From a virus (taxonomy: Duplodnaviria > Heunggongvirae > Uroviricota > Caudoviricetes): DNA of 64,000 bases. Made by a program: the position numbers and the translations under genes. This document shows, in pieces, positions 7,337 through 48,252 of the stretch. The number at the start of each line of letters is the position of its first letter. Within the stretch, counting starts at the first letter, position 1. Below the pieces are notes generated by a model. It was given only the letters and a program-made list of their open reading frames with translations, did no database searches and was not told the DNA's origin. The stretch lies in IMG/VR virus record IMGVR_UViG_3300022822_000008. The stretch is one strand, 5' to 3'.

Positions 7337-7341
7337 ATCAG

Positions 7342-7433: not shown

Positions 7434-7440
7434 AAATAAA

Positions 7441-7518: not shown

Positions 7519-7533
7519 AATAAAAGCATAATG

Positions 7534-7608: not shown

Positions 7609-7628
7609 ACATTATGCTCTTTAAATTT

Positions 7629-7704
7629 TGGTGCACCGCCCTGGATTCGAACCAGAAACCTTTCGATTATGAGTCGAGTGCTCTACCAGTTGAGCTAGCA
7701 GTGC
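7629..7704 (-). tRNA. tRNA-Met/Ile2 (anticodon CAT), CCA encoded; near-duplicate body of 3261..3336
   Basis: The internal ~60 nt are identical to the tRNA at 3261..3336 apart from a T-loop base; acceptor GCACTGC/GCGGTGC. Confidence 0.75.
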
Positions 7705-7727
7705 GTAATTTTAACTTTAAACAAATT

Positions 7728-7798
7728 TGGTGGAGAACCAGAGAATCGAACTCTGTTCTAGTCGGTGCAAGCGACCATCTGCATCCATGACGTTCCCC
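7728..7798 (-). tRNA. tRNA-Ala (anticodon TGC) with the G3:U70 identity pair, CCA encoded
   Basis: Acceptor GGGGAAC/GTTCTCC gives G3-U70; perfect T-arm CAGAG-TTCGATT-CTCTG; anticodon loop CTTGCAC. Confidence 0.8.
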
Positions 7799-7804
7799 AA
7801 TTTT

Positions 7805-8197
7805 TTACACCTTTAACTTATCATCTCTAGTAAGGTAGTTTTTCTTTCGCATAGTTGTTTTTGCTATAACATCTAATTCATCATTTCGTTTATCGTACTT
7901 AACCATAAAAGGTATGTTGATGTTTGAGTTAATGTCGAATAAAACTGCTTCGACACCTGGATTCATACCTCCGATTTTAGGTCCATGTTTTGCAAATACC
8001 TTCTTGAACATACTCATTAGCTCAACTATTGTAATTGCATTACCGTTTCTAGCATCGTTGACTCTTTCTCTAAAATGAGTACCAGATAAATCTATATCTA
8101 CACCAACAGCAGCGAATAACTTATCAGCAAATTTCTCTACTATACCAATATCTGTTCTTGAAAGTTCTTCTGAGAACATTTCTTTAAATCTTTTCAT
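7805..8197 (-). CDS. Hypothetical protein
   Basis: 130-aa ORF. Confidence 0.5.
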   Translation of the reverse strand: MKRFKEMFSEELSRTDIGIVEKFADKLFAAVGVDIDLSGTHFRERVNDARNGNAITIVELMSMFKKVFAKHGPKIGGMNPGVEAVLFDINSNINIPFMVKYDKRNDELDVIAKTTMRKKNYLTRDDKLKV

Positions 8198-8385
8198 TGT
8201 GACTACCTTATTATTTTTATCTATTTATCTATTTATGTACAAGGTTATCAACTAAATAATTATATGTCCAGTATCCTCACCTAAAAGAGGAATGCATCGG
8301 CCGTTTGCATCGCTAATCTTGACCCTATGCGTCCGAGGATTGGCATTTAGGAACGATCAATTTTGCATACTGGCATATAATTATT

Positions 8386-8461
8386 TGGTAGTGTGAAATG
8401 GATTTGAACCATTATCTAATCCCTTATGAGGAGATTTCTTTACCAATTAAGATACCACACT
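8386..8461 (-). tRNA. tRNA with anticodon CAT (fourth CAT tRNA), CCA encoded
   Basis: Perfect T-arm AATGG-TTCAAAT-CCATT; anticodon stem ATCTC/GGGAT with loop CTCATAA; acceptor AGTGTGG/TCACACT. Confidence 0.7.
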
Positions 8462-8472
8462 ATTAAAAAATT

Positions 8473-8548
8473 TGGTACTCGATGATGGGATCGAACCATC
8501 AACATCTGCCATGTAAAGGCAGTGCTCTGCCTATTGAGCTAATCGAGT
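8473..8548 (-). tRNA. tRNA-Val (anticodon TAC), CCA encoded
   Basis: Perfect acceptor ACTCGAT/ATCGAGT; perfect T-arm GATGG-TTCGATC-CCATC; perfect anticodon stem with loop TTTACAT. Confidence 0.8.
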
Positions 8549-8610
8549 TTTGGTGCCGAAACCCGGAACTGACCCGAGAACTAATGGTTACAAATCACTT
8601 GTTTTTCCAG

Positions 8611-9252
8611 TTAAACTATTTCGGCTATTTCGTTAATTGATTGCCAACTAAGTTGGCTCTTATTTAAAATTATTATTCTAACGCCATTCTGTTCTTCTAC
8701 TAGTTTTATCTTTTCACAATCTTTGAACCCAAGGCTTGGGTTGATGTTGTTAATTAGAAAGTCGTTTTTAGGGTCTAAATATAAATCATAGTCTATTAAA
8801 TATATGTCTGGTGTATAGGTTCTTGCTTTGCCTTTTGGGTCAATATAATTGAACCTCGAGCAAGTATCCCATTTAATGTCATTTTCATCTAAGCTCTTTG
8901 CAACTTCTAATTCGTAACTACTACCTAAAGTTTTACCTTTATATTTTATCCATCTAGACTGAGTTACGCCACCAAGGCCACGTTTTTTCGCGGCTATTGA
9001 TAATTTATTCCTAGCTTCTTGAGACCAATTACGATTTCTATTACGTTCGCTAATCTTATTTCTCGCGTCATCACTTAAAATATAAGGTATACCAGTTTCC
9101 GAAGATTTGATCCATTGATTGCTATTCTTCCTCTTATCATAATCAATTTTAGGGTCTGCAATTCTATCTGGATTTTCTGCGCATCTTGGTTGATGTGCGC
9201 TCAATACCCTTTTCTTTTCTATTTCTTTGTTACAATATTTGCAATTAAACAT
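8611..9252 (-). CDS. Putative free-standing homing endonuclease (N-terminal CxxC zinc finger, NUMOD3-like repeats, C-terminal nuclease-like domain)
   Basis: CKYCNKEI...HQPRC; repeated KIS/KLS.RNRNRNWSQEARNKLS motifs; located directly beside the tRNA cluster. Confidence 0.45.
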   Translation of the reverse strand: MFNCKYCNKEIEKKRVLSAHQPRCAENPDRIADPKIDYDKRKNSNQWIKSSETGIPYILSDDARNKISERNRNRNWSQEARNKLSIAAKKRGLGGVTQSRWIKYKGKTLGSSYELEVAKSLDENDIKWDTCSRFNYIDPKGKARTYTPDIYLIDYDLYLDPKNDFLINNINPSLGFKDCEKIKLVEEQNGVRIIILNKSQLSWQSINEIAEIV

Positions 9253-13538: not shown

Positions 13539-14645
13539 CTACATATCTCTCGCGGTTTTATATAATGCAATCGACACAGGAAATCTAGGAACCCCATCAG
13601 GAGTTCGCGTGAAGAATTTCACAGTGACTTCACCACCAACATATAATTCAGCATCTTCTAATAATTGTTTGGCATATGCAAAATTACCTTTCAAACCAGA
13701 ACCACATTCGCGGCCGTCTTCCAATTTAAAAACAACTCGTTTTGCGTGACCAGACCAATTACCTTTACCTTCTTCAACACGAACGATTTCAAATTCGGCG
13801 TCTTCGAAGTCTTTACGTTTCATCAACGATTTACTACGTTTTCCTTCGTAAGGTTCATCTAATCGAGCCATACCACCTTCATATCCTTCACTCATGAATT
13901 CGCCGTAATATTCATCAGCTTCAGATTCATTTTCAGCTCTGAAGGTAGGAACGAATTTAGTGTATTTCAAATCTTGCGTCAGTTCGAAGAGTTCAACAGT
14001 TCGTGAAGTAAAAACACCTGGATTGCTCGGCAAGTCATAAGTATGAAATTGAGCCATTTCTTTTGACTTCACAAGGTCGTCTTCAGATGGTTTGGTACGT
14101 CGAACGATAGAAATAATCTCATTGAAATCTTCTTTCAGGTCGTGGTTGTACAATTCGCCGTCAAGAATAAGATCAGGATTTTTCTCAAACAATGGTGCAA
14201 GCTCTTCGAGGATATGAGGAATTGTGGGAATTGGTTTGCCGTTGCGTGTAGTAGCGCCTGTTGAAGATATGATGCAGCGAATGCCATCAAGTTTTGGCTG
14301 AACGAATATGGGATAAGTTATTTTATCTTTACGATCTTCCCATTTACATGCAAGCATTGGTCCGAAAAAGATGAATTTTCCGACATCTTCAATTTTGTCA
14401 TGATAATTTTGTTCACGTTGCTTAGTGTACATAGCTGTCACCTTAGCGATAGCTTGTTCCTCATTTGTAGTTGCATTCGCCTTTCCTACATTAACGCCTT
14501 TAGCGGTCGTCCACTTCGCGACTACCATTTTGCCGCCATAAACACCAGCGACTGTGCGGTATTTGTCATCTTCTAATTCGCAGAACCATTCGCGGGTTTT
14601 GCCTTTTGTGTCCAGTTTGAATAACGAGCTCATTTGATAAATCAT
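13539..14645 (-). CDS. ATP-dependent DNA ligase (T7-type, ~368 aa)
   Basis: Motif I KLDGIR, motif III LDGELY, motif IV EGGMARL, motif V LMKRKDF, plus a C-terminal OB-like region. Confidence 0.7.
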   Translation of the reverse strand: MIYQMSSLFKLDTKGKTREWFCELEDDKYRTVAGVYGGKMVVAKWTTAKGVNVGKANATTNEEQAIAKVTAMYTKQREQNYHDKIEDVGKFIFFGPMLACKWEDRKDKITYPIFVQPKLDGIRCIISSTGATTRNGKPIPTIPHILEELAPLFEKNPDLILDGELYNHDLKEDFNEIISIVRRTKPSEDDLVKSKEMAQFHTYDLPSNPGVFTSRTVELFELTQDLKYTKFVPTFRAENESEADEYYGEFMSEGYEGGMARLDEPYEGKRSKSLMKRKDFEDAEFEIVRVEEGKGNWSGHAKRVVFKLEDGRECGSGLKGNFAYAKQLLEDAELYVGGEVTVKFFTRTPDGVPRFPVSIALYKTARDM

Positions 14646-16545: not shown

Positions 16546-17451
16546 TCAACCATTATATTCTTCCATGATGATATCTTTTATTTTGCTCATATCGTTATAT
16601 TCTGGCAAATCACTCGCCTCAAGTTTTTCCGTAACACTATCATACATATCAGTGATTATAGAAACAGCATCTTCTTGAGGTACTTGACCTAATTTGATTT
16701 TCATAATTTCGTCAGCACGAACCAAAGGAAATACTAAATCTCTTGTGTCGATTATTTCCTCAAGTTGGATAATAGCCCTGACTGCATGACTCAATGCCTT
16801 CCAATCGCCACCTGAATGTGAACTTACTACAGTTCGGTCACCGTAACGACTTATTTTTTGCTCCAAACAAGTTTTAAGATGCTCCATACGACAGGTAATT
16901 TGATTGCGGCTGCCACAAATATCAATGTTAGCAATAATATTATCTTTATGTGGAGTGAACGTAATATATTTAAAATCAGATCTCATTATTTGTTCAGGTA
17001 TCGTGGTTTCAGCAACTCTAACACTATCGTGATAAACATGCAACCAATTATTTAGTTCCTGCATTTCCTGATAACGTCTAACTTTATGGCCATATTTCGT
17101 AGACATCGTTTTTATATAACCAAGAATTCCTCTCATATTTTTACAATAAATGCCAGATCTATTTTTCTGAATTTCATCCCAAGCAGGCGTCGAGTTTAGT
17201 GTAAATTCCTTCGGTGTGTGTATCATATCAACAGAAACAGTATCACCCTTGTCTAGCATGCTGAAATATTTTCCAATTGCATACAGCGAAGTGTCAATAT
17301 CATCAGTTTGTTTTTCTATGACAGGTTGAAAATTTCCAAATACAACATCTTCTAAAGTAGGAACAAAAAGGCCTTTGTAATCTGTATCGCTCTGTGGCCT
17401 AGATAATCCATACAGATGCGAACCAAATACTCCATTAAATAAAATTTTCAT
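16546..17451 (-). CDS. Pol-beta-superfamily nucleotidyltransferase (GS..DxD motif)
   Basis: GVFGSHLYGLSRPQSDTDYKG plus a downstream acidic residue in VSVDMIH. Confidence 0.6.
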   Translation of the reverse strand: MKILFNGVFGSHLYGLSRPQSDTDYKGLFVPTLEDVVFGNFQPVIEKQTDDIDTSLYAIGKYFSMLDKGDTVSVDMIHTPKEFTLNSTPAWDEIQKNRSGIYCKNMRGILGYIKTMSTKYGHKVRRYQEMQELNNWLHVYHDSVRVAETTIPEQIMRSDFKYITFTPHKDNIIANIDICGSRNQITCRMEHLKTCLEQKISRYGDRTVVSSHSGGDWKALSHAVRAIIQLEEIIDTRDLVFPLVRADEIMKIKLGQVPQEDAVSIITDMYDSVTEKLEASDLPEYNDMSKIKDIIMEEYNG

Positions 17452-32512: not shown

Positions 32513-34261
32513 TTAGATCGAATCAAGAACGTTTTTACGCACTTCTTCGAGCGTTGTTGTCAATATCATTTTAGAGTCCTTAAAAATCGTTTTGAGTTCG
32601 CCTTGTTTTTCTTGTTCCTGAGTTTGCCCATCATATTGAACATAGACGCCATCTTCAAGTTCGATACGTAATAAACCAAATGCAGATTTCTTTTTAGAAT
32701 CAGTTTTTGGGTCTTTACAAACATTAACAGAATTTCCGTTTTCTTCAATGTAAGTTGCTTTTACAGCAGAACCGTGGGTGTCACGACTAACAAACTGATA
32801 AGAATATGAACCAACACCCATTACGACAAGTGGAGCGAAACCTTTTTCCATCAAACGACGGTAAATTTCAGTTTGTCTAACAAGCGTAATTGAATCACCG
32901 TAGATTGCGCCAATTTGGTCGTGCAAGATTTTATATCCAACTTCAGTTTCAACACCACCAAAGATATCCCACAAACATTCAACCAAACCTTTGTCTTCGG
33001 AAGACAATTGCATCTCAGTAAATGTACAAAAGTCAAGATCATCACCGTAGTTATCAACATAATAATAAGTTTTATCATGGCGATTCAGTTCAGGTTCATA
33101 TGTGACTTTATAAGGAGTTCCGTCTGGAGCTCTATAGAATCCAGTTGAGCAGCTTATTGGGTTTGTGCAGTCTTCAGCCAATTCATCACAAAATTCCTCA
33201 TCTAATTCTGCAGCAACGGCTTCTTTCCAAGATTGTACGTTATCATTAAAATCAGTTACTTTTTTGAATTCACGACCACAAAGAACTTCTACAGGATCAC
33301 CAGAATCAGGCCGAACAACAAATTTACCAGAACGAGCAAGGATGTCTTCTTTCAATAAAGGAATACCTTCAGATACAAATTTCCAAAAGTCAAAAGAATC
33401 AGAAACATGCGAAAGGATTTTATTTTCTTTAACTTTAGTAAATAAATATCTGACATACATCAATTCAGCGTCGAATTTGCTAATTCCTTCTTTTTGAGCA
33501 ATTGCCATAATGAATGAAGTTGCTGTGCTGTGTTCAGTTGCATAAACGCTTTTACCTACACATTCACCTTTAACTTTCGCACCATAGTATTTTTCGACAC
33601 CCATAATACCAGCGATAGTATCAGTTCCGAATGAGCTTGTTAATTGACCCATTGAACTCATCATAGCGGCCTCCGGTCCGAACATACCGCGCGCCGAAAA
33701 ATCGTGATTCATAAACCAAGCAACACCTGGATCTACACCAGATGCCAAATAAGCTTTAATGGTATTTTTCAGATAGGCGCGTGAAGTTGTAGCTGAAGTT
33801 TGTAAAGGCCAAACGCATTGACTGTGTAGCGTTTCTAAGTAGTTTCCAATCCAAGCAAAATCATCATGAGTTGTTTGATAAGTAGTACTAGCAACACCGT
33901 AAGGAACCATAACACCTTCAGGTAGAGATTTAATTTCGAGCGGCAAATATTGCAAATCATGCAAAGCTTCAAAGTGCGAAACATCTACATCTTCATCAAG
34001 AATAGCATCAACATGTGACTTTAAAAACTTACAAGCGATAGCTTTATCAACTTGAAAGAAAGTCTCATTCCATTGTTTAATAAGATATTCAGTCACATAA
34101 TACTGATTACCAAAGTTCATAACACCGTCACGTTCTTCATGTGGGATATTACTCAACCGAGAGTTTCGGTTTGTCATGTTACCATAAACTTTAGTTATTC
34201 CATCGATGTAAGCATCTTTATGGAATAACTTATAAGCATCTGTTGCTAGTGCTACAAACAT
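32513..34261 (-). CDS. nadV: Nicotinamide phosphoribosyltransferase (NAMPT/NadV)
   Basis: N-terminus LATDAYKLFHKDAYIDGITKVYGNMTNR matches the NAMPT signature. Confidence 0.8.
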   Translation of the reverse strand: MFVALATDAYKLFHKDAYIDGITKVYGNMTNRNSRLSNIPHEERDGVMNFGNQYYVTEYLIKQWNETFFQVDKAIACKFLKSHVDAILDEDVDVSHFEALHDLQYLPLEIKSLPEGVMVPYGVASTTYQTTHDDFAWIGNYLETLHSQCVWPLQTSATTSRAYLKNTIKAYLASGVDPGVAWFMNHDFSARGMFGPEAAMMSSMGQLTSSFGTDTIAGIMGVEKYYGAKVKGECVGKSVYATEHSTATSFIMAIAQKEGISKFDAELMYVRYLFTKVKENKILSHVSDSFDFWKFVSEGIPLLKEDILARSGKFVVRPDSGDPVEVLCGREFKKVTDFNDNVQSWKEAVAAELDEEFCDELAEDCTNPISCSTGFYRAPDGTPYKVTYEPELNRHDKTYYYVDNYGDDLDFCTFTEMQLSSEDKGLVECLWDIFGGVETEVGYKILHDQIGAIYGDSITLVRQTEIYRRLMEKGFAPLVVMGVGSYSYQFVSRDTHGSAVKATYIEENGNSVNVCKDPKTDSKKKSAFGLLRIELEDGVYVQYDGQTQEQEKQGELKTIFKDSKMILTTTLEEVRKNVLDSI

Positions 34262-34263: not shown

Positions 34264-34593
34264 TTATTTTCCTTCTTCATTTTGAATTAATTCAAAATAC
34301 ACCACGGCGCGGCATATTGCTTTTTCGTGCGTTTCATCTTCATTTTCAAATGCGAGAAACCTTTCAAGTTCTTGATTTTCGTGGCACCAGTAATTAGGAC
34401 CAAGACAATCGTAATCTTCATAGCTTTTATTTACGTTGAATTCTTGTGCTATGTAAGCACCACCCGACAATGAAAAGGGATCCAATGGAGCAATCATCCA
34501 TTCATATGAGTTACATATTGCGATTATTGCTTCACTCAACTCGTCATCGGTCATATCGAATACTTTATAATATAATGGTAATTCTTCTCTCAT
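34264..34593 (-). CDS. Hypothetical protein
   Basis: 109 aa between nadV and the prs-like gene. Confidence 0.4.
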   Translation of the reverse strand: MREELPLYYKVFDMTDDELSEAIIAICNSYEWMIAPLDPFSLSGGAYIAQEFNVNKSYEDYDCLGPNYWCHENQELERFLAFENEDETHEKAICRAVVYFELIQNEEGK

Positions 34594-35471
34594 TGTATTT
34601 TACTCATTTTGTTTTTTATTCGTTGATCATCATTATAGGTATTTAGTGATTTTTCAGTTACATAGTCAGCAATGATATTATGAGTATAAATTGCGTCAAT
34701 ATGATCTTTGAATATCTCTAGACCTTTTGCAGCGATTAAGTGAGTGACGTAGAGATCTACTTCATATCCCATTTCTTTCAATTTTACGGCGAGTGGAATA
34801 AAAGTACCTCCACCGTCTAAGATATCATCCACAATTAATACTCTTCGCTTGGATTTAACTAAATCTGCATGTGATTTGCAATTCAATTCCACACTTTCAA
34901 TTCTGCCAGTTTCAAGATTACGTTTCTTTAATGCATACAAAACAGGAACTCCAGACATTTCAGATATCTTTTGTATTTTGGTAACAGCGCCAGCGTCAGG
35001 AGAAACTATATAATCGTAATCTGCCATTTGGATATGAGATTTTTTCAAAGTTTCCCGTAGGCAAGTCGCCTGTGTATTAATAACGTAGTTAAGATAATGA
35101 TGATCTAAGGCCTGTTCATTATGCGGGTCGTTGATGTGGATTTCGTCAAAGTTAAATCTTGACAACCAATCTTGAAATACTCTCAGAGGCTCAGTATTTC
35201 CAGTTTGAAAGATTCTATCCGCACGAGCGTAAGGTAAATATCCCAATACTAGAATTTCTTGAATATTATCCATATCGAAAGTATCATAAATTGCATAGTA
35301 AAGCATTTCCATTTTTTCTTTCATTAGAGGAATGTTGTTAGTTTCATCTGTCACATCGATTGAGATGTATTTTTCAATTACTGCATCTGGGTCAACACGA
35401 CAGGTAATAGCAGAATCAGAGAAGGTTAACCATTGTACGTCGATCACTTCGTTGTTAGATATTAGTTGCAT
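34590..35471 (-). CDS. prs: Ribose-phosphate pyrophosphokinase-like protein (PRPP synthetase family)
   Basis: VSPDAGAV..KI flexible-loop motif and PRPP-binding loop RRVLIVDDILDGGGT. Confidence 0.65.
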   Translation of the reverse strand: MQLISNNEVIDVQWLTFSDSAITCRVDPDAVIEKYISIDVTDETNNIPLMKEKMEMLYYAIYDTFDMDNIQEILVLGYLPYARADRIFQTGNTEPLRVFQDWLSRFNFDEIHINDPHNEQALDHHYLNYVINTQATCLRETLKKSHIQMADYDYIVSPDAGAVTKIQKISEMSGVPVLYALKKRNLETGRIESVELNCKSHADLVKSKRRVLIVDDILDGGGTFIPLAVKLKEMGYEVDLYVTHLIAAKGLEIFKDHIDAIYTHNIIADYVTEKSLNTYNDDQRIKNKMSKIQ

Positions 35472-36687: not shown

Positions 36688-36933
36688 TTATCTTTTTGAC
36701 CTCCCGATACACTGCCGAGTAAATGTATCTTGAAAAATTGACCAACCCCTATCCCAAGATATATGACGTCTCAAGGCCCAAAATTCGTCTGCGTATTGCT
36801 CGATATCATCTTCAAATATATAATGCCAAGGAGTTTCGTTGTGCGTTATAGAAACCCATTCATCAATAGAAAAAGATGGGTGAGTGAGTTTGTTACCGAG
36901 TCTCAGCGACTCCATTGCCTCTAATCTGTTCAT
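36688..36933 (-). CDS. Hypothetical protein
   Basis: 81-aa ORF. Confidence 0.4.
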   Translation of the reverse strand: MNRLEAMESLRLGNKLTHPSFSIDEWVSITHNETPWHYIFEDDIEQYADEFWALRRHISWDRGWSIFQDTFTRQCIGRSKR

Positions 36934-37340
36934 GATCTTTCCTGAATTGCTTTATAACCTTCCTCAATATAATCTAAACATGATGAAGGTAAATGCCCAG
37001 CATTTGTGCGAGTTGCAATGCGACACGCAAAGTCATGAACAAACCCAACTAGAGCATTTCCGTGGTGTAGCACATCATGAGATAGCTGTATATCAACCAT
37101 GCATTTATTTGTATAGGTATCAACTGTACCATATTTTTTGTTTATATATCCCAGTTGTATCAACTTTTCTACTGTAAACTCTTCAAGTTCGGGTGTATAC
37201 AAATCATCAGGAATAACTTGACCAACAGCACATTTAAAATTTCCACATTGCGATCTATAAACGCAGCCACCGTTAGAATTTACAGAAATTCTACCTTGCA
37301 ACATAGTTTTTACTATCATATCTCTCAATATTAATGACAT
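36930..37340 (-). CDS. LQG...GGC.YRS...C.IGQ.IP family protein (paralog 2)
   Basis: Shares MLQG....GGCxYRS....KCA(I/V)GQ(L/V)IP and C-terminal LP..CL.YIEE with 37340..37780; a weaker copy is at 40500..40916. Confidence 0.5.
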   Translation of the reverse strand: MSLILRDMIVKTMLQGRISVNSNGGCVYRSQCGNFKCAVGQVIPDDLYTPELEEFTVEKLIQLGYINKKYGTVDTYTNKCMVDIQLSHDVLHHGNALVGFVHDFACRIATRTNAGHLPSSCLDYIEEGYKAIQERS

Positions 37341-37780
37341 TATACTTCCTCAATATAGGTTAGACAAATTTCAGGTAAGACACCTTCCGCGACAGCATCC
37401 TTTATAAGACTAATGAATGATTTTACAAATAAATGTGGCTGCCTGCTAGAGCAGTCATGGGAAGCCTGTATTCTTTGTAATTGAAAATCTTTCTTTGCAG
37501 TAAGTTTACCATATTTTTTATACATCAAACCCTTCGCAAACAGTTTTTTTATAGACAGGCCTTCTATTTTGACATCATATTTTTTATTTGGTATTAATTG
37601 CCCAATTGCGCATTTATATTGTAAATCATTAGAACGATAGGCGCAGCCGCCTAAATAACCCACACAAGCCTTTCCCTGCAATATAGTTTTTTGTATTGAA
37701 TCTTTTAATACCTTTGACATAATTTTTATCTCATTTTGTTTCAGTGTGTTTATTCTATCAAATGTAAAATAGTATGTCAA
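37340..37780 (-). CDS. LQG...GGC.YRS...C.IGQ.IP family protein (paralog 1)
   Basis: See 36930..37340. Confidence 0.5.
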   Translation of the reverse strand: MTYYFTFDRINTLKQNEIKIMSKVLKDSIQKTILQGKACVGYLGGCAYRSNDLQYKCAIGQLIPNKKYDVKIEGLSIKKLFAKGLMYKKYGKLTAKKDFQLQRIQASHDCSSRQPHLFVKSFISLIKDAVAEGVLPEICLTYIEEV

Positions 37781-39122: not shown

Positions 39123-39151
39123 TATTATATCAAGATTGGCAGCATTGTCAA
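39123..39151 (-). promoter_or_regulatory. Early promoter cassette (leader variant ATTGAATTAAACAACGAACGG)
   Basis: GTTGAC-17-TTGATATAATAATTGTATTGAATTAAACAACG. Confidence 0.55.
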
Positions 39152-39360: not shown

Positions 39361-40536
39361 TCATAATTTCATCCCTAACCAAGTTGAAAATTTATCCCAC
39401 TTAGTATTTGATCCTACATTAGATTTCACTTTAGACATCATCATATCTTCAACCTTCTTTGAATCAAGATATCCGAATATAAAGTAACCCAGAGACTTGT
39501 CGTCAAGTTGAGTAATGAATTCCAGCGCAATTGCTTTGCGATTGTCTCCGTACATATTCACAACAAACTTACACATCAGTCCTATTTCAAGTTCTTTATC
39601 TTCGATAGATTTGAAAAACAAGGCTTGTGTATCTTTAACTTTTTTCACATCAGCTTCAAGTAAAATAGGCAACACATCATCAACTTCGTTATTAATAATT
39701 AAATTAATAATATTACGCTGAGAACGTACTAAGTCTTTTACTTTATGAATGCGAACATACCACTCGTTTTTGATTTTAATCATATGACCGGAATCAAATC
39801 GAATAACGACACCCTCGCGTCCTTCCTCTAATTTTATTCCATCAGAAAACCCTTTTAAATTCTTATCAACTTGTCCGTATTCAGGTGCTTTATTAAAAGG
39901 AGGGTAATCTTCGAGAGGTAAGTATTCGCCTGTAATGTTATGACGAAGTGCTAACAAAACCAAATCAGCTGCTTCATATTCCAATACTATTTGATTATCA
40001 GGCGCGATAAATTCAAACAAAGGAGTCACATTAAATCTTAGACATTTTTCCATCCATCCGTAGGATATAGCAGAATCTTCCAATCCTGCAAGATAGGTTT
40101 CAGCCTGCATTGCAACATCAGTCACTCCCATTTTTGTACCTAAGCGAATATGACCATCAACCACAAAAGGGCGAATCATCGAACCATCCATTTTTTCCAT
40201 GACCGTATGAGGTTGAGTAATATCTACAACAGATGGTTGTGTTTCCTCACGTTCATTAAGATTGAAGAACTTATGGAATGGACGGCTGATGATTCGGCCC
40301 GTAGTATCGAAGATTAAACCGCGACATTCTCGGCGCATTGAACCAGTAAGAGGATTTCCTGCAATATCAAAAGTATCATCTTTACAGACGACATAGTTAA
40401 TTACAGTATAACCTTCTTTTTCGACTACAACAAACTCGGTGCGGCCTTCGATGTGCGGTAATACATCTTCGATTGTGTTGATAATTGGAAATTTATAATT
40501 CATTTTTTGCTTCCGCCTTGACCCATTGAAATCCAT
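39361..40536 (-). CDS. rnlA: RNA ligase 1 (T4 RnlA / gp63 family)
   Basis: ECRGLIFD, KFFNLNE and nucleotidyltransferase motif I EKMDGSM align with T4 Rnl1. Confidence 0.8.
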   Translation of the reverse strand: MDFNGSRRKQKMNYKFPIINTIEDVLPHIEGRTEFVVVEKEGYTVINYVVCKDDTFDIAGNPLTGSMRRECRGLIFDTTGRIISRPFHKFFNLNEREETQPSVVDITQPHTVMEKMDGSMIRPFVVDGHIRLGTKMGVTDVAMQAETYLAGLEDSAISYGWMEKCLRFNVTPLFEFIAPDNQIVLEYEAADLVLLALRHNITGEYLPLEDYPPFNKAPEYGQVDKNLKGFSDGIKLEEGREGVVIRFDSGHMIKIKNEWYVRIHKVKDLVRSQRNIINLIINNEVDDVLPILLEADVKKVKDTQALFFKSIEDKELEIGLMCKFVVNMYGDNRKAIALEFITQLDDKSLGYFIFGYLDSKKVEDMMMSKVKSNVGSNTKWDKFSTWLGMKL

Positions 40537-40916
40537 ACATCAATATTTGGATTGCTAACATCTAAGCCGTAAGACATAAATATGGGTTTTAGCGATCCTC
40601 TGTACTTAGCATTAACTATATCGTGAAAGCTTTGAATGTCTTTAAACAGATTTGCGTTATCTAAAATAATGTCGGGTAACAGATGTCTATCAAATGTATT
40701 AATTAAATCTTCTACATCACCCTGAAATTCCATTAAGTCTTTATTGTTATGATCCAATAAAAATCCTATTGAGCAATGTAGGCCGTCCCGGGTTCCATAT
40801 GCACAAGTGCCAAATAGTGTTATTGATTGCTCTCCTTGAAGTACCAATCGATCAATTACATAGTCGAAATTTTCTTGTAAGTTCATTTCAATATCTCCTG
40901 TTATTAATTTATGCAA
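40500..40916 (-). CDS. Hypothetical protein, distant member of the LQG..C.YG..C.IG family
   Basis: VLQGEQSITLFGTCAYGTRDGLHCSIGFLL; lies between the pnk kinase ORF and rnlA. Confidence 0.4.
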   Translation of the reverse strand: MHKLITGDIEMNLQENFDYVIDRLVLQGEQSITLFGTCAYGTRDGLHCSIGFLLDHNNKDLMEFQGDVEDLINTFDRHLLPDIILDNANLFKDIQSFHDIVNAKYRGSLKPIFMSYGLDVSNPNIDVWISMGQGGSKK

Positions 40917-40932
40917 CCATTATAACAAAATT

Positions 40933-41475
40933 TTAATCAGTGTCAACGACTAATTGACTCATTAACAAACCAGCCATCTCGCCATAAATATCTATAAATA
41001 TCACAGTATCAAATCCTTCTTTAAGAGTAGGTTCTTGATAAGATTCCTTCATGCTTTTTAATATGCCTGGCGGTATAGTCTTACCTGGTCGACTTTCAAG
41101 ACGTCGATTCCATTCCGCAATATCTTTTTCTGTTTTTGCAGGCAAAAAAGTCTGGCAAACTACTGTATAGCCTGCTTTGGTCATACGTTCCACGATCACT
41201 TTTCGCTTTTTAGAAGTGAGGTTAGTTTGATCCCATATAACATCTTGATTGTTCACTATGGCTTGAGTTAAACCCACTTCGCAAACTTTAATAGCAGGTT
41301 TAATCGTTTCCATAAAAACATCATTATATGTTTTATCTTCCAATTTAGCTACGGATTCTATATAAGCATCCGACGAATACACAAAAATATTTTTTGATGC
41401 TTTAGACGTCATTGTGCTTTTTCCTGAGGCAGGAAGACCAACCATTACGTGACAGAACTTTTGTTTCGTTTCCAT
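40933..41475 (-). CDS. pnk: Polynucleotide 5'-kinase domain protein (T4 Pnk N-terminal-domain homolog) as a stand-alone ORF
   Basis: Walker A GLPASGKST; SSDAYIE and DQTNLTSKKRK align with T4 Pnk kinase motifs. Confidence 0.65.
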   Translation of the reverse strand: METKQKFCHVMVGLPASGKSTMTSKASKNIFVYSSDAYIESVAKLEDKTYNDVFMETIKPAIKVCEVGLTQAIVNNQDVIWDQTNLTSKKRKVIVERMTKAGYTVVCQTFLPAKTEKDIAEWNRRLESRPGKTIPPGILKSMKESYQEPTLKEGFDTVIFIDIYGEMAGLLMSQLVVDTD

Positions 41476-41933
41476 TAGAAATCTACTCCACTTTGATTAC
41501 AATCAAATACCCAGATGCCTTCTTCGCGCCACATTTTGACAACACGAGGACGATCATCGAATACCATATCAGGCATCTGTTTATAACTTTCTATGATACC
41601 ATATAAGATTTCTCTCTTTACGATTGAGTCGCAGCGATAGTCACCGAATCTACGCATGTATAAATCATCATATTCTCCCATGCCATTTTCGCTCAACCAC
41701 GTTTCAGTATCTTTTCGTGTATCGTCAGAACGCCCAGATGCAAAGATTACATACACATTTGGATCTTCAATATAACGGATGCAAACGTCAACGGTTGCTT
41801 TAATAGGCAAATCAAATTTAATGGCCTTATTAAAAGCAGGCCAGTTTTTTGGTTTACATCTCACATATTTTAAACGGTGATCCAAGTTTGCAACAGTTCC
41901 ATCAATGTCAAACACTACTAATAATTTACTCAT
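41475..41933 (-). CDS. Polynucleotide 3'-phosphatase domain protein (HAD; T4 Pnk C-terminal-domain homolog) as a stand-alone ORF upstream of the kinase ORF
   Basis: DxDGT motif VVFDIDGTVA; C-terminus DDRPRVVKMWREEGIWVFDCNQSGVDF closely matches the T4 Pnk C-terminus. Confidence 0.7.
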   Translation of the reverse strand: MSKLLVVFDIDGTVANLDHRLKYVRCKPKNWPAFNKAIKFDLPIKATVDVCIRYIEDPNVYVIFASGRSDDTRKDTETWLSENGMGEYDDLYMRRFGDYRCDSIVKREILYGIIESYKQMPDMVFDDRPRVVKMWREEGIWVFDCNQSGVDF

Positions 41934-41942: not shown

Positions 41943-42380
41943 TTAATCCGTAAAATCAATAAAGGGGCAAATTTTTGCTTTCTTAGCTTTAATATAAGAT
42001 ACGACTAATCCATCTTCAACTGGGACAAAGTCTCTGCTAAGGTATCTGCGATTTTTATAACGAGAATATATTTTTAATGCATAACTTCCACTATTCCATA
42101 CAAGCAATGCGTAAGAACCCGTTCCGAATATTAATGTAGCAGCTAAGATACCATCAGGCGAAAGTGTCACAACACCAAACAAAGTAAGGGGTACTGTGAA
42201 TATACCAACTAAGCATGCTAATGCCAAAATTACAATAGCAGATAAAATTAACAGCGCTATCCCAGGAAATATAGTGGTTGAAAACACGACTTGCCATAAA
42301 TATACGCACAAACTTCGACTTTGTACTATTTTCAATTTGCTTAACCATCTGTAATGCCACGACTTTGTACTAATTTTCAT
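41943..42380 (-). CDS. Integral membrane protein
   Basis: Several hydrophobic helices. Confidence 0.45.
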   Translation of the reverse strand: MKISTKSWHYRWLSKLKIVQSRSLCVYLWQVVFSTTIFPGIALLILSAIVILALACLVGIFTVPLTLFGVVTLSPDGILAATLIFGTGSYALLVWNSGSYALKIYSRYKNRRYLSRDFVPVEDGLVVSYIKAKKAKICPFIDFTD

Positions 42381-42678: not shown

Positions 42679-43115
42679 CTTAATTTAGACCTTAACATTT
42701 TCATATAAGATATTGCTTCTTTCAAGGAAGTGTCACTGTTTAAGTGAGGATGGTTTAATTCCTCAGGCGTGAAATAACCTGATGCCACAGCACGGTGCCT
42801 GCGTACCTTTTCCCCTGGCCCAGTGATAGAATCAGATAGGTCAAGGCCAATCACTCGAGTTATTTCTCTTTCAACAGCACTAGCTTCGTTTCTAATTCTA
42901 TTCTCATAATCTTCATCATTCTCTGTAGGTTGTCGATCCGATAGAGTACGCAAAGCCACAAAGCCGCATATACAGGCGGCATAACCACAAAAATGTGTGC
43001 TCTCATATCTAAATTGAACCCACTCTCTCATATCTAAAACTTCTTCCCTTGAGTTTGATAATTCTAAGGTTTCTATCAAATACGATAATAGTTGAACTTT
43101 ATTTAAACCATTCAT
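42675..43115 (-). CDS. Distant member of the CGY..CICG Cys-motif family
   Basis: HFCGYAACICGFVAL ... KEAISYMKMLRSKL. Confidence 0.4.
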   Translation of the reverse strand: MNGLNKVQLLSYLIETLELSNSREEVLDMREWVQFRYESTHFCGYAACICGFVALRTLSDRQPTENDEDYENRIRNEASAVEREITRVIGLDLSDSITGPGEKVRRHRAVASGYFTPEELNHPHLNSDTSLKEAISYMKMLRSKLR

Positions 43116-43654
43116 TTACTTAGACTCTCCAATAATTCTTCCGCTGTGTATGTACCATCAACTCTGATACCCCAATGGAGTAACGCCTGACGTCTCACAG
43201 GACTGCCAGTATTTTTTGTCCACGTGTCCATTTCAAAACGATTAGTAATATAAGTCAAATGTCGCTTAATTTTTTTCCAGCGCATAATTTGTCTAGCATC
43301 ATCATCGGTGCGGCGACCCATATAGAAACGGCAGTACCATTGAAACCAACCGCGCGGATCTTGTTCGTGAATCCAGCCACTATCACGCCACTCTTTAAGA
43401 TTTTGACTTGCCTTGCATTTGAAGAAATTAAGATTTACGTTGTATTTCTTTGAATCCAATTTAGCATTATCGAACCAAACAGCAGGAAATTCATCACGAC
43501 AGTCGGTCATGTATTTTCCGCCAAAGACGCCCATTTCAAGCATATCTTTTGGAGTCGCTGTAGGATTGAAGTTGTCTGGCAAATCGCCTACATTTGCGGG
43601 GCAGCCGTATTGATAATTCGACTGCATTTTATCATTAACAGTGACTAACCGCAT
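43112..43654 (-). CDS. Hypothetical protein
   Basis: 180-aa ORF. Confidence 0.45.
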   Translation of the reverse strand: MRLVTVNDKMQSNYQYGCPANVGDLPDNFNPTATPKDMLEMGVFGGKYMTDCRDEFPAVWFDNAKLDSKKYNVNLNFFKCKASQNLKEWRDSGWIHEQDPRGWFQWYCRFYMGRRTDDDARQIMRWKKIKRHLTYITNRFEMDTWTKNTGSPVRRQALLHWGIRVDGTYTAEELLESLSK

Positions 43655-46185: not shown

Positions 46186-47205
46186 TTATTTTTCTTTCAA
46201 CAGATATTTATTGCTTATTGCTTTGAAACTTTTTTGGCCGTCATGGCTTTTAAATACTAAACCTTCTCGATTAGTACTATTTAGAATACTCATTCCGTCT
46301 GCATCTTTAATAATATCAGAAGCAGTTGTATATCGTACAGACAGAGGCGTATAGTATAAAACAGGCACTGAATCTATCCCAACACGTTTAAATTCGAATC
46401 TTGCATCTGGGGTTAAGTATCGTTGTGTTTGTATATCGAATATATCAAATACCTTAAATTGAGTTTTATCAAGTTTGTAGATGTTTTTCTGAATGCCTGG
46501 TCCGATAAGCTCACCTTGAATCGCAATATTATCCCAATATCTACCATCAATAAATCCACAATTTCTCATCTTTGTTTCGATATCTAAACGTCTTGCGCAT
46601 TCCCAAAAGCCATTACCTTCGGTCTCTTTAAGATCGAGATTTCTGCTACATACACCAAATTCACCGTCAATTAGATAACAGGTCATTGAACTGCCTTCTA
46701 ATTTTTCTGTAATTTCCCATGATTCAGGAGAAGTCAAATAGTTGGCAACATGAGACATACAATTTTGAATTCTTTCTTGATCTGTTTTTCTTATTTGCGG
46801 AGGGAAATTACCTTTGGCCATACCTGCAAGTTGAGCATTTACGGGAGGATCGTATTTAGCGATATTCAAAATTTCAGAAACATCGTCACCGATATCCCAA
46901 AAGTCAGTTAGGAGTTCAGTAGATAATATTAGACCTTGACTAATTTGCCCGCGCAATTTAATTGTTCTGAGGCGTTCACCTTTCACGCCTTCATACGTGC
47001 GAGGTTCTTTTCCTTTAGATAGAAACGGTGCCAAATCTATAGGTATCCAACTGTCAATTTCACAAAAAACAATTATCTGTCCTTCGTTGTATTCACCTTT
47101 TCTGATTACAACTTTCCAGCCGTCTACGGTCGCGACTTCAATTGCGTCAGCGTTTTCGATTGGGCTCACGTCGCTAATCATTCGTACTGTTGCCATCTGT
47201 CTCAT
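46186..47205 (-). CDS. Rnl2-superfamily RNA ligase with an extra N-terminal (OB-like) domain and no Rnl2 C-terminal domain (Rnl5/DraRnl-like architecture)
   Basis: Motif I EKLEGSS; GELIGPGIQKNIYKLDKTQFKVFDIFD aligns with T4 Rnl2 GEFAGPGIQKNV...FYVFDI; motif IV EGLVFKS; motif V KAISNK. Confidence 0.7.
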   Translation of the reverse strand: MRQMATVRMISDVSPIENADAIEVATVDGWKVVIRKGEYNEGQIIVFCEIDSWIPIDLAPFLSKGKEPRTYEGVKGERLRTIKLRGQISQGLILSTELLTDFWDIGDDVSEILNIAKYDPPVNAQLAGMAKGNFPPQIRKTDQERIQNCMSHVANYLTSPESWEITEKLEGSSMTCYLIDGEFGVCSRNLDLKETEGNGFWECARRLDIETKMRNCGFIDGRYWDNIAIQGELIGPGIQKNIYKLDKTQFKVFDIFDIQTQRYLTPDARFEFKRVGIDSVPVLYYTPLSVRYTTASDIIKDADGMSILNSTNREGLVFKSHDGQKSFKAISNKYLLKEK

Positions 47206-47277: not shown

Positions 47278-48252
47278 TTATTTTCTTTCCCACATATAAG
47301 GTGTCATATTAAAGAATTGTTTTTCCATTTTTACATAGCCTTTATCACGCATAAGTTGGTTGAATCTTCTACTTATTTTCTTCCAATCAATTATGTCAGT
47401 GCCAACAAAGAAATTACTATCTTTATATTCTTTGAAGTGCCCGATGCCTACAGTACCGAAAGAGTTGGCGATTATCATATATCTAGGATTGTTTGCTTCA
47501 ATAACCTCAGCAAGATGTTCTAGCGGATATTCGATGTGTTCAAAGTATTCACAAGCAAATAATATATCAATTTCACCCAAGTTGAGTGAATTTTCTTCTA
47601 GTCGGAAATCGCAGGTTTTTTGTAACGCCTGGGATATTTTCCATTGTTCGCAGTCTTTAAAATTTGTAGCAATAACCTCTGCATCTGGATATAGGCTTTT
47701 CCAACCTACAGTCGTTCTACCTATACCGTTACCGAGATCCAATATGCGTTTCACGTCTGAAAATATGTGTAAGTGTTTAGAAAGACCTTTCATAACATTT
47801 CGAGTATAAACCATCCAGCAAGCATAAGCCTCTACATAATAATCATCGTCAGAATAAACCGAGTAGTCTATTTCGCCTTTATCTAGAGCATCAATCCATT
47901 GTCGCTCTAAATGCTCCAATGGATTTGCCGGGCGTTCTGGATCTTTAGAACCGTAGGAATAATATTTAATTAAAGAATTAACTTTTGCTGTTGCTTCATC
48001 AGCATCTAGCGTCCTTACATTTTCATTAAATAGTTCGATGAACTGTCTTAAATCTTCTATAGGTCGTATTTCTAAACTGTTCATAATGTATATTGCCTTA
48101 CTGTCGAATATTATTTTGGATTCGTTTTCAATTTTCCTAGGTATGTATAATTTCCCATCCAATACAATTTTAGTTTTAACGTCAAAAGGGTCTCTTGTGT
48201 TGAACTCATCGACCGTAAAATTTGCATCGGCTCCTTTCCGACAGTGTACCAA
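47278..48252 (-). CDS. Hen1-like SAM-dependent methyltransferase (candidate RNA 3'-terminal 2'-O-methyltransferase)
   Basis: SAM motif I ILDLGNGIGRTT; motif II DAEVIATNF; motif IV DILFACEYFEHIE plus downstream LEHL resemble the Hen1 metal-binding E..EH/H signature; gene is adjacent to the RNA ligase. Confidence 0.5.
   Translation of the reverse strand: MVHCRKGADANFTVDEFNTRDPFDVKTKIVLDGKLYIPRKIENESKIIFDSKAIYIMNSLEIRPIEDLRQFIELFNENVRTLDADEATAKVNSLIKYYSYGSKDPERPANPLEHLERQWIDALDKGEIDYSVYSDDDYYVEAYACWMVYTRNVMKGLSKHLHIFSDVKRILDLGNGIGRTTVGWKSLYPDAEVIATNFKDCEQWKISQALQKTCDFRLEENSLNLGEIDILFACEYFEHIEYPLEHLAEVIEANNPRYMIIANSFGTVGIGHFKEYKDSNFFVGTDIIDWKKISRRFNQLMRDKGYVKMEKQFFNMTPYMWERK

Follow-up and report, generated by a model that had tools for sequence, protein, structure and literature searches.

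The minus-strand region at positions 39361..41933 of the window (the whole stretch of phage DNA analyzed here, 64,000 nucleotides in length) probably encodes a two-gene cassette for the healing of RNA ends, together with a sealing ligase, which, on the evidence of its sequence, would be the functional equivalent of PseT and RnlA of phage T4, built from unfused parts. The phosphatase and the kinase are separate ORFs joined by a stop/start overlap, and lie near an Rnl1 ligase gene, an arrangement already recognized, with the same coordinates for this pair, in the initial annotation of the region. The fused Pnkp of T4, the textbook form, is just one packaging of phage RNA end-healing, and many large uncultured phages encode the two enzymes in separate, often translationally coupled, genes, with a kinase from another PNK lineage.

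The Phosphatase Gene

The phosphatase gene (41475..41933, minus strand) encodes a separate protein of 152 aa, which domain and profile matches assign to the HAD (DxDxT) polynucleotide 2',3'/3'-phosphatases of the type found in the C-terminal domain of T4 Pnkp. The protein matches the Pfam family HAD_PNKP (PF25109) at 3.1e-25 and 89.4 bits, against a gathering cut-off of 27.6, with residues 6-147 covering positions 4-140 of the 143 in the profile, and the PHROG family phrog_415 at 1e-37. In the PDB, it is matched to Pnkp1 (4xrp, 3e-10) and to the phosphatase domain of T4 Pnk (5uj0, 1e-6), and the same search recovered no chain of mammalian PNKP.

The T4-like features listed in the initial annotation are present in the protein, that is, the DIDGT motif and a C-terminal end (...DDRPRVVKMWREEGIWVFDCNQSGVDF) that aligns with residues 277-301 of T4 Pnk. 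The active site is also conserved, given that D9, D11, S66, K106, and D127 are the counterparts of the T4 residues Asp165, Asp167, Ser211, Lys258, and Asp278, and are maintained throughout the family. In the T4 enzyme, D165 and D167 are the nucleophile and the acid-base Asp of the DxDxT motif (PMC3592404). Separate HAD_PNKP phosphatases are found in approximately 2,150 phage records, including those of small T1-like phages.

The Kinase Gene

The kinase gene (40933..41475, minus strand), which is also separate, encodes a P-loop protein of 180 aa that resembles the polynucleotide 5'-OH kinases, and is placed by domain, profile, and model matches in the “DxTN” clade of PNKP and PSTK. The Walker A (GLPASGKST) and DQTNL motifs reported previously were both found, and the family assignments proposed then, a T4-type HAD 3'-phosphatase and a PNK-family kinase, are supported by the sequences. 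The best Pfam match is AAA_33 (1.7e-13, 51.5 bits against a gathering cut-off of 27), followed by KTI12 (4e-7), 6PF2K (8e-7), and Zeta_toxin (1e-4), and the best PHROG match is phrog_2071 (8e-22), a family labeled just “ATPase”, with a further match to the kinase half of phrog_505 (1e-11).

When the family profile was compared with the PDB, proven polynucleotide kinases (RazKIN, mammalian PNKP, T4 Pnk, and Pnkp1) filled most of the top ranks, with E-values of 3e-8 for both RazKIN and mammalian PNKP, 6e-7 for PSTK, and 1e-6 for T4 Pnk. In this comparison, 6PF2K falls to 0.01, the sole adenylate kinase entry is a partial match (0.019), and there are no dNMP kinases among the matches. Together with the Pfam results and those of NCBIfam, where all three matches are PNK or PSTK models, this dispels the doubt raised initially, that the ORF might align better with dNMP or adenylate kinases. 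A search of the PDB with the single sequence returned PSTK as the best match, phmmer recovered no T4 match, and hhalign paired the protein with T4 Pnk at a probability of 97.2%. The earlier description of the locus as a T4 Pnk split in inverted order is not supported, as the kinase is not T4-like, and PNKP, RazKIN, and PSTK all outrank T4.

The AF2 model of the kinase (pLDDT 90.7) has mammalian PNKP as its top Foldseek match, with RazKIN and CthPnk also among its best structural neighbors. Of these, RazKIN has been demonstrated by experiment to be a stand-alone kinase of RNA 5'-OH ends (PMC11571804). The PFKFB 6-phosphofructo-2-kinases and the zeta toxins score nearly as high as the polynucleotide kinases, so the substrate is not fixed by the fold alone.

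In an alignment of 26 sequences, residues G13-T21, D36, D82-L86, K90, R91, R125, and R129 are invariant, which covers the Walker A motif, the general-base Asp, the D-x-T-N motif, and the R-x-x-x-R motif of the clade. The residues essential to the T4 kinase are Lys15, Ser16, Asp35, Arg38, Asp85, and Arg126 (PMC2831316). Here, K15, S16, D35, and R126 are kept as K19, S20, D36, and R129, whereas the Arg38 position is occupied by Ile39 (I or L throughout the family) and that of Asp85 by Gln83, with the invariant Asp found one position earlier, at 82. Given the absence of Arg38 and the displacement of the Asp85 acid by one position, the acceptor specificity may differ from that of T4. Mammalian PNKP is also without a counterpart of Arg38, and does not accept mononucleotides (PMC2831316), and the phage kinase may refuse these acceptors in the same way.

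The C-terminal tail of the kinase contains a PTLxEGF element. As hhalign placed residues 149-170 (PTLKEGFDTVIFIDIYGEM) on the linker and VIFDVDGTL segment of T4 Pnk, it was considered whether this tail might be what remains of a degenerated HAD motif I, implying a fused ancestor, and this idea was rejected. The tail is strongly conserved across 121 kinases and can be aligned both with mouse PNKP, at its PTLAEGF...IL element, and with RazKIN, and is thus a normal part of the kinase fold. The phage kinases form a separate clade, which, in these comparisons, appears closer to mammalian PNKP and the KIN enzymes of the Mucorales than to T4 Pnk.

The Junction and the Unfused Layout

The two genes meet at a translational-coupling junction read from the sequence (41473..41489, minus strand), in which a Shine-Dalgarno-like GGAG (41489..41486) is followed by a 10-nt spacer and TAATG. 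The junction reads TTC TAA TGG, with the stop TAA at 41477..41475 and the start ATG at 41475..41473, so that a single base, 41475, is shared; the ATGA overlap originally given for this position belongs, instead, to the junction between the small ORF and rnlA. The TAATG overlap behind an internal GGAG indicates that the phosphatase and the kinase are probably produced in coupled amounts from one mRNA. The single polypeptide that characterizes T4 Pnkp is not found here, as the two ORFs are read in different frames and a TAA stop separates them.

The question raised in the initial annotation, of whether related phages carry the fused or the split form, has a uniform answer, given that no fused form was seen, either in 84 loci or among the best 120 listed homologues of each protein. 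The open frame of the kinase is shorter than 231 aa (maximum 230) in 84/84 loci, and the best 120 listed homologues are single-domain proteins of 162-187 aa for the kinase and 141-173 aa for the phosphatase. A GGAG or GAGG...TTC-TAATG (or TGATG) junction is found in loci L001, L090, L091, L092, L009, L010, and L011, and the TAATG/TGATG junction with GGAG recurs in assemblies from JGI, ENA, and Logan, even where kinase identity is as low as approximately 45%.

It is exceedingly improbable, then, that a single fused phosphatase-kinase gene has been divided by a frameshift introduced in sequencing or assembly, or by a pseudogenizing break of recent date. Nothing beyond the adjacency of the genes and their 1-nt overlap speaks for this, whereas the same separate ORFs and overlap recur in assemblies made independently, with different pipelines and from different samples, and the fused form is absent from all 240 listed homologues (the best 120 of each protein) and all 84 loci. 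The phosphatase also finishes at the native C-terminus of its family (...G-x-D-F, an ending shared with T4 Pnk), a GGAG and an ATG are available for the kinase alone, and read-through of the TAA reaches another TAA after nine codons. This second in-frame stop, and the different frame of the kinase, also led to the rejection of a fusion produced through read-through by the window's own UUA-anticodon tRNA. Fusions were further hinted at by the profile coordinates of phrog_4889 (phosphatase N-terminal) and phrog_6931 (kinase C-terminal), and this possibility was discarded as well, since the kinase does not match phrog_4889, nor the phosphatase phrog_6931, and there is thus no evidence here for the fusion of these two families. 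Among the relatives, the phosphatase and kinase genes lie anywhere between -1 nt and 5.7 kb apart, in varying order, so the two are independent gene families that are often linked, rather than pieces of one gene.

The Small ORF, the Promoter, and rnlA

A consensus sigma-70-type promoter is predicted at 40919..40946 (minus strand), with TTGACA and TATAAT separated by 16 nt (with TG), a 12/12 match with an extended -10 TG. Its -35 box overlaps the last codons of the kinase, and it points toward the small ORF and rnlA, with AGGAG and then the ATG at 40886 downstream. This promoter, inside the 3' end of the kinase gene, would additionally drive the small ORF and rnlA, and the ATGA overlap couples these two genes to each other.

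The small Cys-motif ORF (40500..40886, minus strand) begins at this ATG, and not at the TTG at 40916, and encodes 128 aa, with its TGA stop overlapping the start of rnlA. It is lineage-specific, with one identical copy and one 79%-identical homologue, and nothing else, in 5.8 billion proteins, although two paralogues are found in the window (37720..37340 and 37340..36930). It is absent from between the kinase and Rnl1 in the loci of other phages, and its AF2 model has a pLDDT of 34. Given the single non-identical homologue in the protein database and its absence from other loci, the small ORF was rejected as a conserved partner of Rnl1.

The ligase gene, rnlA (39361..40503, minus strand), encodes an Rnl1-type protein of 380 aa, of the T4 RnlA family. 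The initial annotation was right to place it after the small ORF, but its extent of 39361..40536 needs to be shortened, as the ATGA overlap (40503..40500), and the choice of the same start by the gene callers on identical contigs, make 40503 the most likely start. The product matches PF09511 (RNA_lig_T4_1) at 3.6e-28 and 99.4 bits, against a cut-off of 28.3, and phrog_562 at 7e-72, over profile positions 25-368 of 377, and is 30% identical to T4 RnlA (E 3e-29). The nucleotidyltransferase domain, the KxDG lysine (EKMDGS, aligned with TKEDGS in T4), and the Rnl1-specific C-terminal domain are all present, with the TIGR02308 match (2.6e-45, 155 bits) lying under the stricter NCBIfam equivalog cut-off of 242.

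Other Repair Genes and Gene Neighborhoods

The window also encodes a second RNA ligase (46186..47205, minus strand), in which an N-terminal OB domain is combined with a C-terminal nucleotidyltransferase domain, of the Rnl5 type known from Naegleria and Deinococcus. It matches PF21189 and PF09414, scores 203.8 bits with TIGR02306 (RNA_lig_DRB0094; cut-off 151.15), and aligns with NgrRnl (5cot) at 3.8e-76, residues 2-339 against 5-338; the possibility that it is an analogue of T4 Rnl2 was rejected in favor of this NgrRnl/DraRnl type. A nucleotidyltransferase of the RlaP (RNA-ligase-associated Pol-beta) family is found at 16546..17451 (minus strand; PF10127 4.8e-13, phrog_388 7e-72), a family whose role in RNA repair has been described (PMC7824862). 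An array of approximately 23 tRNA genes occupies 611..8625 (minus strand; 23 by ARAGORN, and 23 by Rfam RF00005 at the gathering score), and an ATP-dependent DNA ligase lies at 13539..14645. No Hen1 was identified in the window, and a 324-aa ORF upstream of the Rnl5 gene, considered as a Hen1-like methyltransferase, has no match in Pfam, PHROG, NCBIfam, or a phage tblastn search.

In 70 non-redundant kinase loci, the synteny is with RNA-end enzymes, which accompany the kinase in 48. Within 8 kb, Rnl1 is found in 37/70 and the HAD phosphatase in 28/70, lying upstream on the same strand in 24 of these 28, followed by a metallophosphoesterase (10/70), a Thg1-like enzyme (10/70), and an Rnl5-like ligase (7/70), with no recognized repair partner over this distance in the other 22. 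The partners of the kinase clade vary from phage to phage. The 3'-end healer is either the HAD enzyme or a Metallophos enzyme of the CthPnkp/lambda-phosphatase type, and the accompanying enzyme may be Rnl1, Rnl5, or a Thg1-like protein. At the nucleotide level, megablast searches with 2.7 kb and 24 kb recovered no relatives among 50,697 phage records. The unfused layout is real, but it is widespread in large uncultured phages and also occurs in isolates whose genomes have been sequenced, which makes it part of an ordinary tRNA-repair toolkit.

Proposed Function and Alternative Interpretations

In the proposed mechanism, the 5' fragment of a cleaved RNA would be stripped of its 2',3'-cyclic or 3'-phosphate by the 152-aa HAD acylphosphatase, in which D9 would form the aspartyl-phosphate intermediate and D11 would serve as the acid-base catalyst. 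The 180-aa kinase would then transfer the gamma-phosphate of an NTP, held by K19/S20 and R125/R129, to the 5'-OH of the 3' fragment, with D36 as the general base, and Rnl1 would seal the 3'-OH/5'-PO4 break, most plausibly in the anticodon loop of a tRNA. These enzymatic activities, the tRNA substrate, and a role against host anticodon nucleases are predictions, and a link to the tRNA-cleaving defenses of the host may reasonably be drawn from the biology of T4 and the gene content of the window.

As DNA ends are also substrates of both the T4 enzyme and mammalian PNKP, the role of the phage pair may extend beyond RNA repair. It is possible, for example, that the pair acts mainly on DNA, as mammalian PNKP does, converting nicks or breaks that host nucleases leave with 3'-phosphate/5'-OH ends into substrates for the phage DNA ligase, with the linkage to Rnl1 being secondary. 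This appears improbable, even though mammalian PNKP ranks at or near the top in both the family-profile and structural searches, Arg38 is missing from both kinases, a DNA ligase is encoded in the window, and stand-alone HAD_PNKP phosphatases are so frequent in phage records, those of small T1-like phages included. Against this, Rnl1 is the strongest and most recurrent neighbor of the kinase clade, followed by the Thg1-like and Rnl5-like enzymes, and 430 nt separate the cassette from rnlA, in comparison with the 26 kb between it and the gene for the DNA ligase. RazKIN, the other top match, is an RNA-splicing kinase that also accepts DNA. The RNA-end and DNA-end roles are not mutually exclusive.

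Less probable still is the interpretation of the 180-aa protein as some other P-loop kinase or ATPase that merely adjoins the phosphatase, such as a tRNA-dependent enzyme similar to PSTK or Kti12, a zeta-toxin-like UDP-sugar kinase, or a small-molecule kinase. The KTI12, 6PF2K, and Zeta_toxin matches in Pfam, the first place of PSTK in the single-sequence search of the PDB, the presence of PFKFB and zeta/PezT among the top Foldseek matches, and the bare PHROG label all point in this direction. The family profile, however, gives most of the top places to proven polynucleotide kinases, and leaves 6PF2K far behind, and the three NCBIfam matches are limited to PNK or PSTK models. At 180 aa in total, the protein has no room for the domains with which PSTK and Kti12 bind tRNA at their C-terminus, and these are missing. 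The signatures of the PNK clade, a general-base Asp, DxTN, and RxxxR, do not vary, and RNA-end enzymes adjoin the kinase in more than two-thirds of the loci.

The reading of the region as an RNA end-healing cassette may be extended, although only tentatively, to one in which the 180-aa protein represents a distinct, phage-wide clade of stand-alone kinases, nearer to eukaryotic PNKP and Trl1-KIN, that serves as a swappable cassette for 5'-end healing. The clade would be combined interchangeably with two unrelated 3'-end healers, the T4-type HAD or the lambda/CthPnkp-type metallophosphoesterase, and with two restoration strategies, ligation by Rnl1/Rnl5 or Thg1-like 3'-5' rebuilding. The two proteins of this phage, phosphatase and kinase, could associate in a non-covalent complex, with polynucleotide-only acceptors and, possibly, a donor other than ATP.

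While the split gene pair reveals no new mechanism, it is relevant to annotation, given that both genes are routinely tagged as “polynucleotide kinase” or “ATPase”, and to the mining of enzymes, as a source of compact, separate 5'-kinases and 3'-phosphatases. It also helps in the interpretation of the counter-defense repertoires of phages against tRNA-cleaving systems.

Comparison with Known Systems

The Pnkp (PseT) and RnlA of T4 provide the same three chemistries as those predicted here, of a HAD DxDxT 3'-phosphatase, a P-loop 5'-kinase, and an Rnl1 ligase, and their phosphatase is of the same Pfam family, with the same catalytic residues and C-terminal end. The repair genes of both phages are clustered within approximately 2.5 kb. 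In T4, by contrast, a single polypeptide of 301 aa has an N-terminal kinase and a C-terminal phosphatase, whereas two genes are found here, the phosphatase followed by the kinase. T4 Pnkp forms a homotetramer. The phage kinase is only 27% identical to that of T4 and is without Arg38, its Walker-B-like Asp is shifted by one residue toward the N-terminus, and rnlA, which is upstream of pseT in T4, is downstream of the phosphatase/kinase pair.

The kinase domain of mammalian PNKP is the best or joint-best profile and structural match of the phage kinase. Both have the D-x-T-N motif and a PTLxEGF element at the C-terminus, and neither has a counterpart of Arg38. In PNKP, the phosphatase also precedes the kinase, as in the gene order of the phage, but the mammalian protein is fused (FHA-phosphatase-kinase, with an FHA domain), has a phosphatase of another HAD family, and works in DNA repair. 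The MciKIN and RazKIN (PDB 9d8a) enzymes of the Mucorales are, like the phage kinase, monofunctional proteins of approximately 170-180 aa with genes distinct from those of the remaining healing and sealing enzymes, and RazKIN is its top profile match (3e-8), and among its top Foldseek matches. These enzymes differ in being part of eukaryotic tRNA splicing, in their specificity for GTP, and in having a partner ligase that requires a 2'-PO4.

The bacterial Pnkp/Hen1 systems and the Pnkp1-Rnl-Hen1 system of Capnocytophaga are likewise modular, combining kinase, phosphatase, and ligase for the repair of RNA cleaved by ribotoxins. In the PDB, the phage phosphatase is matched best by Capnocytophaga Pnkp1, and the CthPnk kinase is a close structural neighbor of the phage kinase (TM ~0.65). 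Unlike the phage genes, these systems are fused multi-domain proteins that include the Hen1 methyltransferase, which was not identified in the window.

Among cultured phages, Ruegeria phage RpAliso (OR257569) and Roseobacter phage DSS3P8 (KT870145) carry the same two families as separate HAD phosphatase and kinase genes, at 39-45% identity, beside an RNA ligase and NAD-salvage genes. In these phages, the two genes are 2.4-3.5 kb apart, with the kinase coming after the ligase, uncoupled from the phosphatase, and both are annotated merely as “polynucleotide kinase”.

Organization of the locus

Every gene between 37 and 49 kb of the window lies on the minus strand. In order of transcription, the locus comprises a 145-aa membrane protein (42380..41943, -), a 152-aa phosphatase (41933..41475, -), a 180-aa kinase (41475..40933, -), a small Cys-motif ORF that ends at 40500 (-), and the RNA ligase gene rnlA, which ends at 39361 (-). 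The motifs reported in the initial annotation (DIDGT, the C-terminal DDRPRVV...SGVDF, GLPASGKST, and DQTNL) were recovered, and its description is correct overall, apart from two details of coordinates and motif. The stop/start overlap of phosphatase and kinase does exist, but the junction reads GAT TTC TAA TGG, in which the stop TAA (41477..41475) and the start ATG (41475..41473) have one base in common, forming TAATG rather than ATGA, with a GGAG at 41489..41486 upstream of the kinase start. The ATGA overlap sits at 40503..40500, between the end of the small ORF and an internal methionine of the listed ligase ORF; in identical metagenome contigs, gene callers give the small ORF 128 aa and the ligase 380 aa, with this same overlap.

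A perfect (12/12) sigma-70 consensus promoter with an extended -10 TG, TTGACA-16(TG)-TATAAT (40946..40919, -), overlaps the last codons of the kinase gene; downstream of it come AGGAG and the ATG at 40886 that starts the small ORF. A second perfect 12/12 promoter of this type, also with the extended -10 TG, lies downstream of rnlA (39151..39124, -). The small ORF is one of three paralogues of 126-136 aa (40886..40500, 37720..37340, and 37340..36930, all -), the first coupled to rnlA through the ATGA and the other two in tandem, with the invariant pattern LQG...G-C-x-Y...C-x-x-G...IQ-x-x-HD. The protein database yielded only one non-identical homologue of this family, Pfam matches none of its members, and structure prediction gave no usable fold. 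A 180-aa ORF (43654..43112, -), which contains GWFQWYCRFYMGRR and is kept in the closest relative of the window, has no matches in Pfam, PHROG, or NCBIfam.

Identity of the phosphatase and the kinase

The phosphatase belongs to the HAD_PNKP family (PF25109, 3e-25; phrog_415, 1e-37), with a further match to the phosphatase half of phrog_505, a T4-like family. In the PDB it is matched by full-length T4 Pnk and by the T4 Pnk phosphatase domain on its own, as well as by Pnkp1 from the repair complex of Capnocytophaga. Its pairwise alignment with T4 Pnk has 27% identity over residues 162-291, and the family end, ...G-x-D-F, coincides exactly with that of T4 Pnk. In an alignment of 19 sequences, including T4, the residues D9, D11, R20, G67-R68, R100, K106, and D127 are invariant, among them the counterparts of T4 Asp165, Asp167, Lys258, and Asp278, the roles of which have been described (PMC3592404).

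The kinase matches AAA_33 in Pfam (1.7e-13; KTI12, 6PF2K, and Zeta_toxin more weakly) and, among the PHROGs, phrog_505 in its kinase half (1e-11) and phrog_2071 "ATPase" (8e-22). As a single-sequence query against the PDB it matched PSTK and not T4 Pnk, while BLASTP aligned it with T4 Pnk at 27% identity (E 3e-5), and hhalign gave a probability of 97.2%. A family profile of 26 sequences recovered RazKIN (9d8a) and mammalian PNKP (both E 3e-8), PSTK (6e-7), the T4 Pnk kinase domain (1e-6), Pnkp1 (2e-4), and 6PF2K (0.01) from the PDB. A closer affinity with dNMP or adenylate kinases, which would contradict the assignment to Pnk, is not borne out, since these PDB results include no dNMP kinase, and a partial match (E 0.019) as the sole adenylate-kinase entry, and the NCBIfam matches are limited to PNK-3'Pase, PSTK, and bacterial Pnkp. 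AlphaFold models the kinase with confidence (pLDDT 90.7), and a Foldseek search with this model retrieves mammalian PNKP, RazKIN, and CthPnk as neighbours, but PFKFB kinases and zeta toxins as well.

Separate genes rather than a divided T4 enzyme

The two ORFs might be the product of an assembly frameshift in a fused gene, although this is ruled out by relatives assembled independently at JGI, ENA, and Logan. The closest of these, L001 (JGI 3300022833), shares 94% identity with the window in the kinase and 99% in the phosphatase, and in the next, L090/L091 (ENA, Logan) and L092 (ENA), the phosphatases are 67-72% identical; all four retain the order phosphatase-kinase-(small ORF)-Rnl1 and the 1-nt overlap. 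The junction ...GGAG-N-TTC-TAATG is kept even in the loci L009-L011, at approximately 45% kinase identity (TGATG in L010), and this conservation indicates probable selection for translational coupling.

The split form proved to be common. At E <= 1e-5, the protein database contains 847 homologues of the kinase and 395 of the phosphatase, and the best 120 of each are all single-domain proteins (162-187 and 141-173 aa, respectively); the kinase frame is no longer than 230 aa in all 84 loci (80 from IMG/VR and four from look-ups). The reading of the locus as a split T4 Pnk with inverted domains is misleading: the locus combines a T4-type phosphatase with a stand-alone kinase resembling PNKP in an end-healing module of two genes, with activities predicted from sequence. 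Such modules occur widely among uncultured large phages, and annotated isolates already have them. In two cultured roseophages, for example, an RNA ligase gene is accompanied by two separate genes, one of each family, both labelled "polynucleotide kinase".

Partner genes in related loci

When kinases of at least 90% identity were collapsed into 70 clusters, and partners sought within 8 kb, Rnl1 was found in 37 clusters, the HAD phosphatase in 28 (24 upstream on the same strand, four downstream, seven directly abutting), a metallophosphoesterase and a Thg1-like enzyme in 10 each, and an Rnl5-like ligase in seven; 22 of the 70 had none of these partners. In L002 (6001..7976), L003 (6001..9596), L048, L050-L052, L065, and L069, all from other large phages, the kinase is followed directly by a Metallophos phosphoesterase and a Thg1-like 3'-5' polymerase, an alternative repair module in place of the HAD phosphatase and Rnl1. 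A NUMOD3 homing-endonuclease gene lies on the opposite strand just past the Metallophos gene of L003 (7153..7949; also L004 and L048), followed by a second copy, 67% identical, of the C-terminal 43 residues of Metallophos, which suggests a possible endonuclease insertion with target duplication. The Rnl1 gene is in two pieces in L012 (7572..9614), L013 (5328..7370), L011 (6170..6594), and L024 (8540..9566), with residues 6-208 and 212-389 approximately 0.9 kb apart in L012 and L013, which suggests an intron, intein, endonuclease insertion, or frameshift.

In Bacillus phages, this kinase type forms the N-terminus of a 331-aa protein that adjoins an RNA ligase, and is a fusion with a different phosphohydrolase. 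In vB_BanS-Thrax3 (L088, 2486..3481), this protein is annotated "polynucleotide kinase" and comes directly after the ligase; in related Bacillus phages, its counterpart is annotated as an HD-domain protein.

Other genes of the window

The window also encodes an Rnl5 ligase (47205..46186, -; NgrRnl 3.8e-76 over the full length, TIGR02306 above cut-off), the counter-defence nucleotidyltransferase RlaP (17451..16546, -), an ATP-dependent DNA ligase (13539..14645, -), thymidylate synthase, and two NAD-salvage genes, for nicotinamide phosphoribosyltransferase (NAMPT; 32513..34261, -) and a PRPP-synthetase-like protein (34590..35471, -). A 324-aa ORF (48252..47278, -) precedes the Rnl5 ligase at a distance of 72 nt; its ILDLGNGIGRTT and DILFACEYFEHI stretches look like class I SAM-methyltransferase motifs, it has no matches in Pfam, PHROGs, NCBIfam, or any phage record, and a Hen1-like role is conceivable but unsupported.

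Approximately 23 tRNA genes occupy 611..8625. One (2982..3056, -; tRNA-Stop in ARAGORN, 47.5 bits in Rfam) has the anticodon UUA in a CUUUAAA loop flanked by an ACGGA/UCCGU stem, and would decode UAA, a stop codon; the ORFs of this region look intact under the standard code, and so give no hint of recoding. ARAGORN and Rfam (at the gathering score) disagree on four genes: a tRNA with a 2-base "anticodon" (6177..6254, -) and a tRNA-Ser (1654..1737, -) are found by ARAGORN alone, and those at 6264..6333 (-) and 1047..1128 (-) by Rfam alone.

Segments of 2.7 and 24 kb of the window showed no nucleotide-level similarity with any INPHARED phage. A conserved 671-aa protein has counterparts, at approximately 53% identity, in large phages (135-147 kb) of Klebsiella, Escherichia, and Proteus. 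An identical copy of the small-ORF protein is recorded on a contig of 210,608 bp, so that the window probably derives from a large or jumbo phage of an environmental metagenome.

Proposed mechanism and comparison with known systems

In the proposed pathway, the HAD enzyme would take off the 3' block via an Asp9-phosphate intermediate, the kinase would add a phosphate to the 5'-OH with Asp36 as the general base, and Rnl1 would seal the break, while Rnl5 and RlaP would probably deal with other lesions, such as duplex-RNA nicks or missing nucleotides. The known phage RNA-repair repertoire, as surveyed in jumbo phages (PMC7824862), includes polynucleotide kinases, RlaP, Thg1, multiple ligases, HAD phosphatases (stand-alone or fused PNK-HAD), and calcineurin-like and HD phosphatases, and the Thg1-PNK linkage has already been pointed out (PMC2904730).

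Six residues are essential in the T4 kinase: K15, S16, D35, Arg38, Asp85, and R126 (PMC2831316). The window kinase has counterparts of K15, S16, D35, and R126, whereas the Arg38 position is Ile/Leu in its family, and that of Asp85 is occupied by Gln, the residue before it being an invariant Asp. Mammalian PNKP also lacks an Arg38 counterpart (PMC2831316), and shares the D-x-T-N and PTLxEGF elements with the window kinase; for RazKIN, a stand-alone enzyme, RNA 5'-OH kinase activity has been proven biochemically (PMC11571804). In T4, kinase dimers and phosphatase dimers are linked through the fused polypeptide to form a tetramer (PMC2831316), whereas the window has two proteins, the coupled translation of which may serve only to balance their expression.
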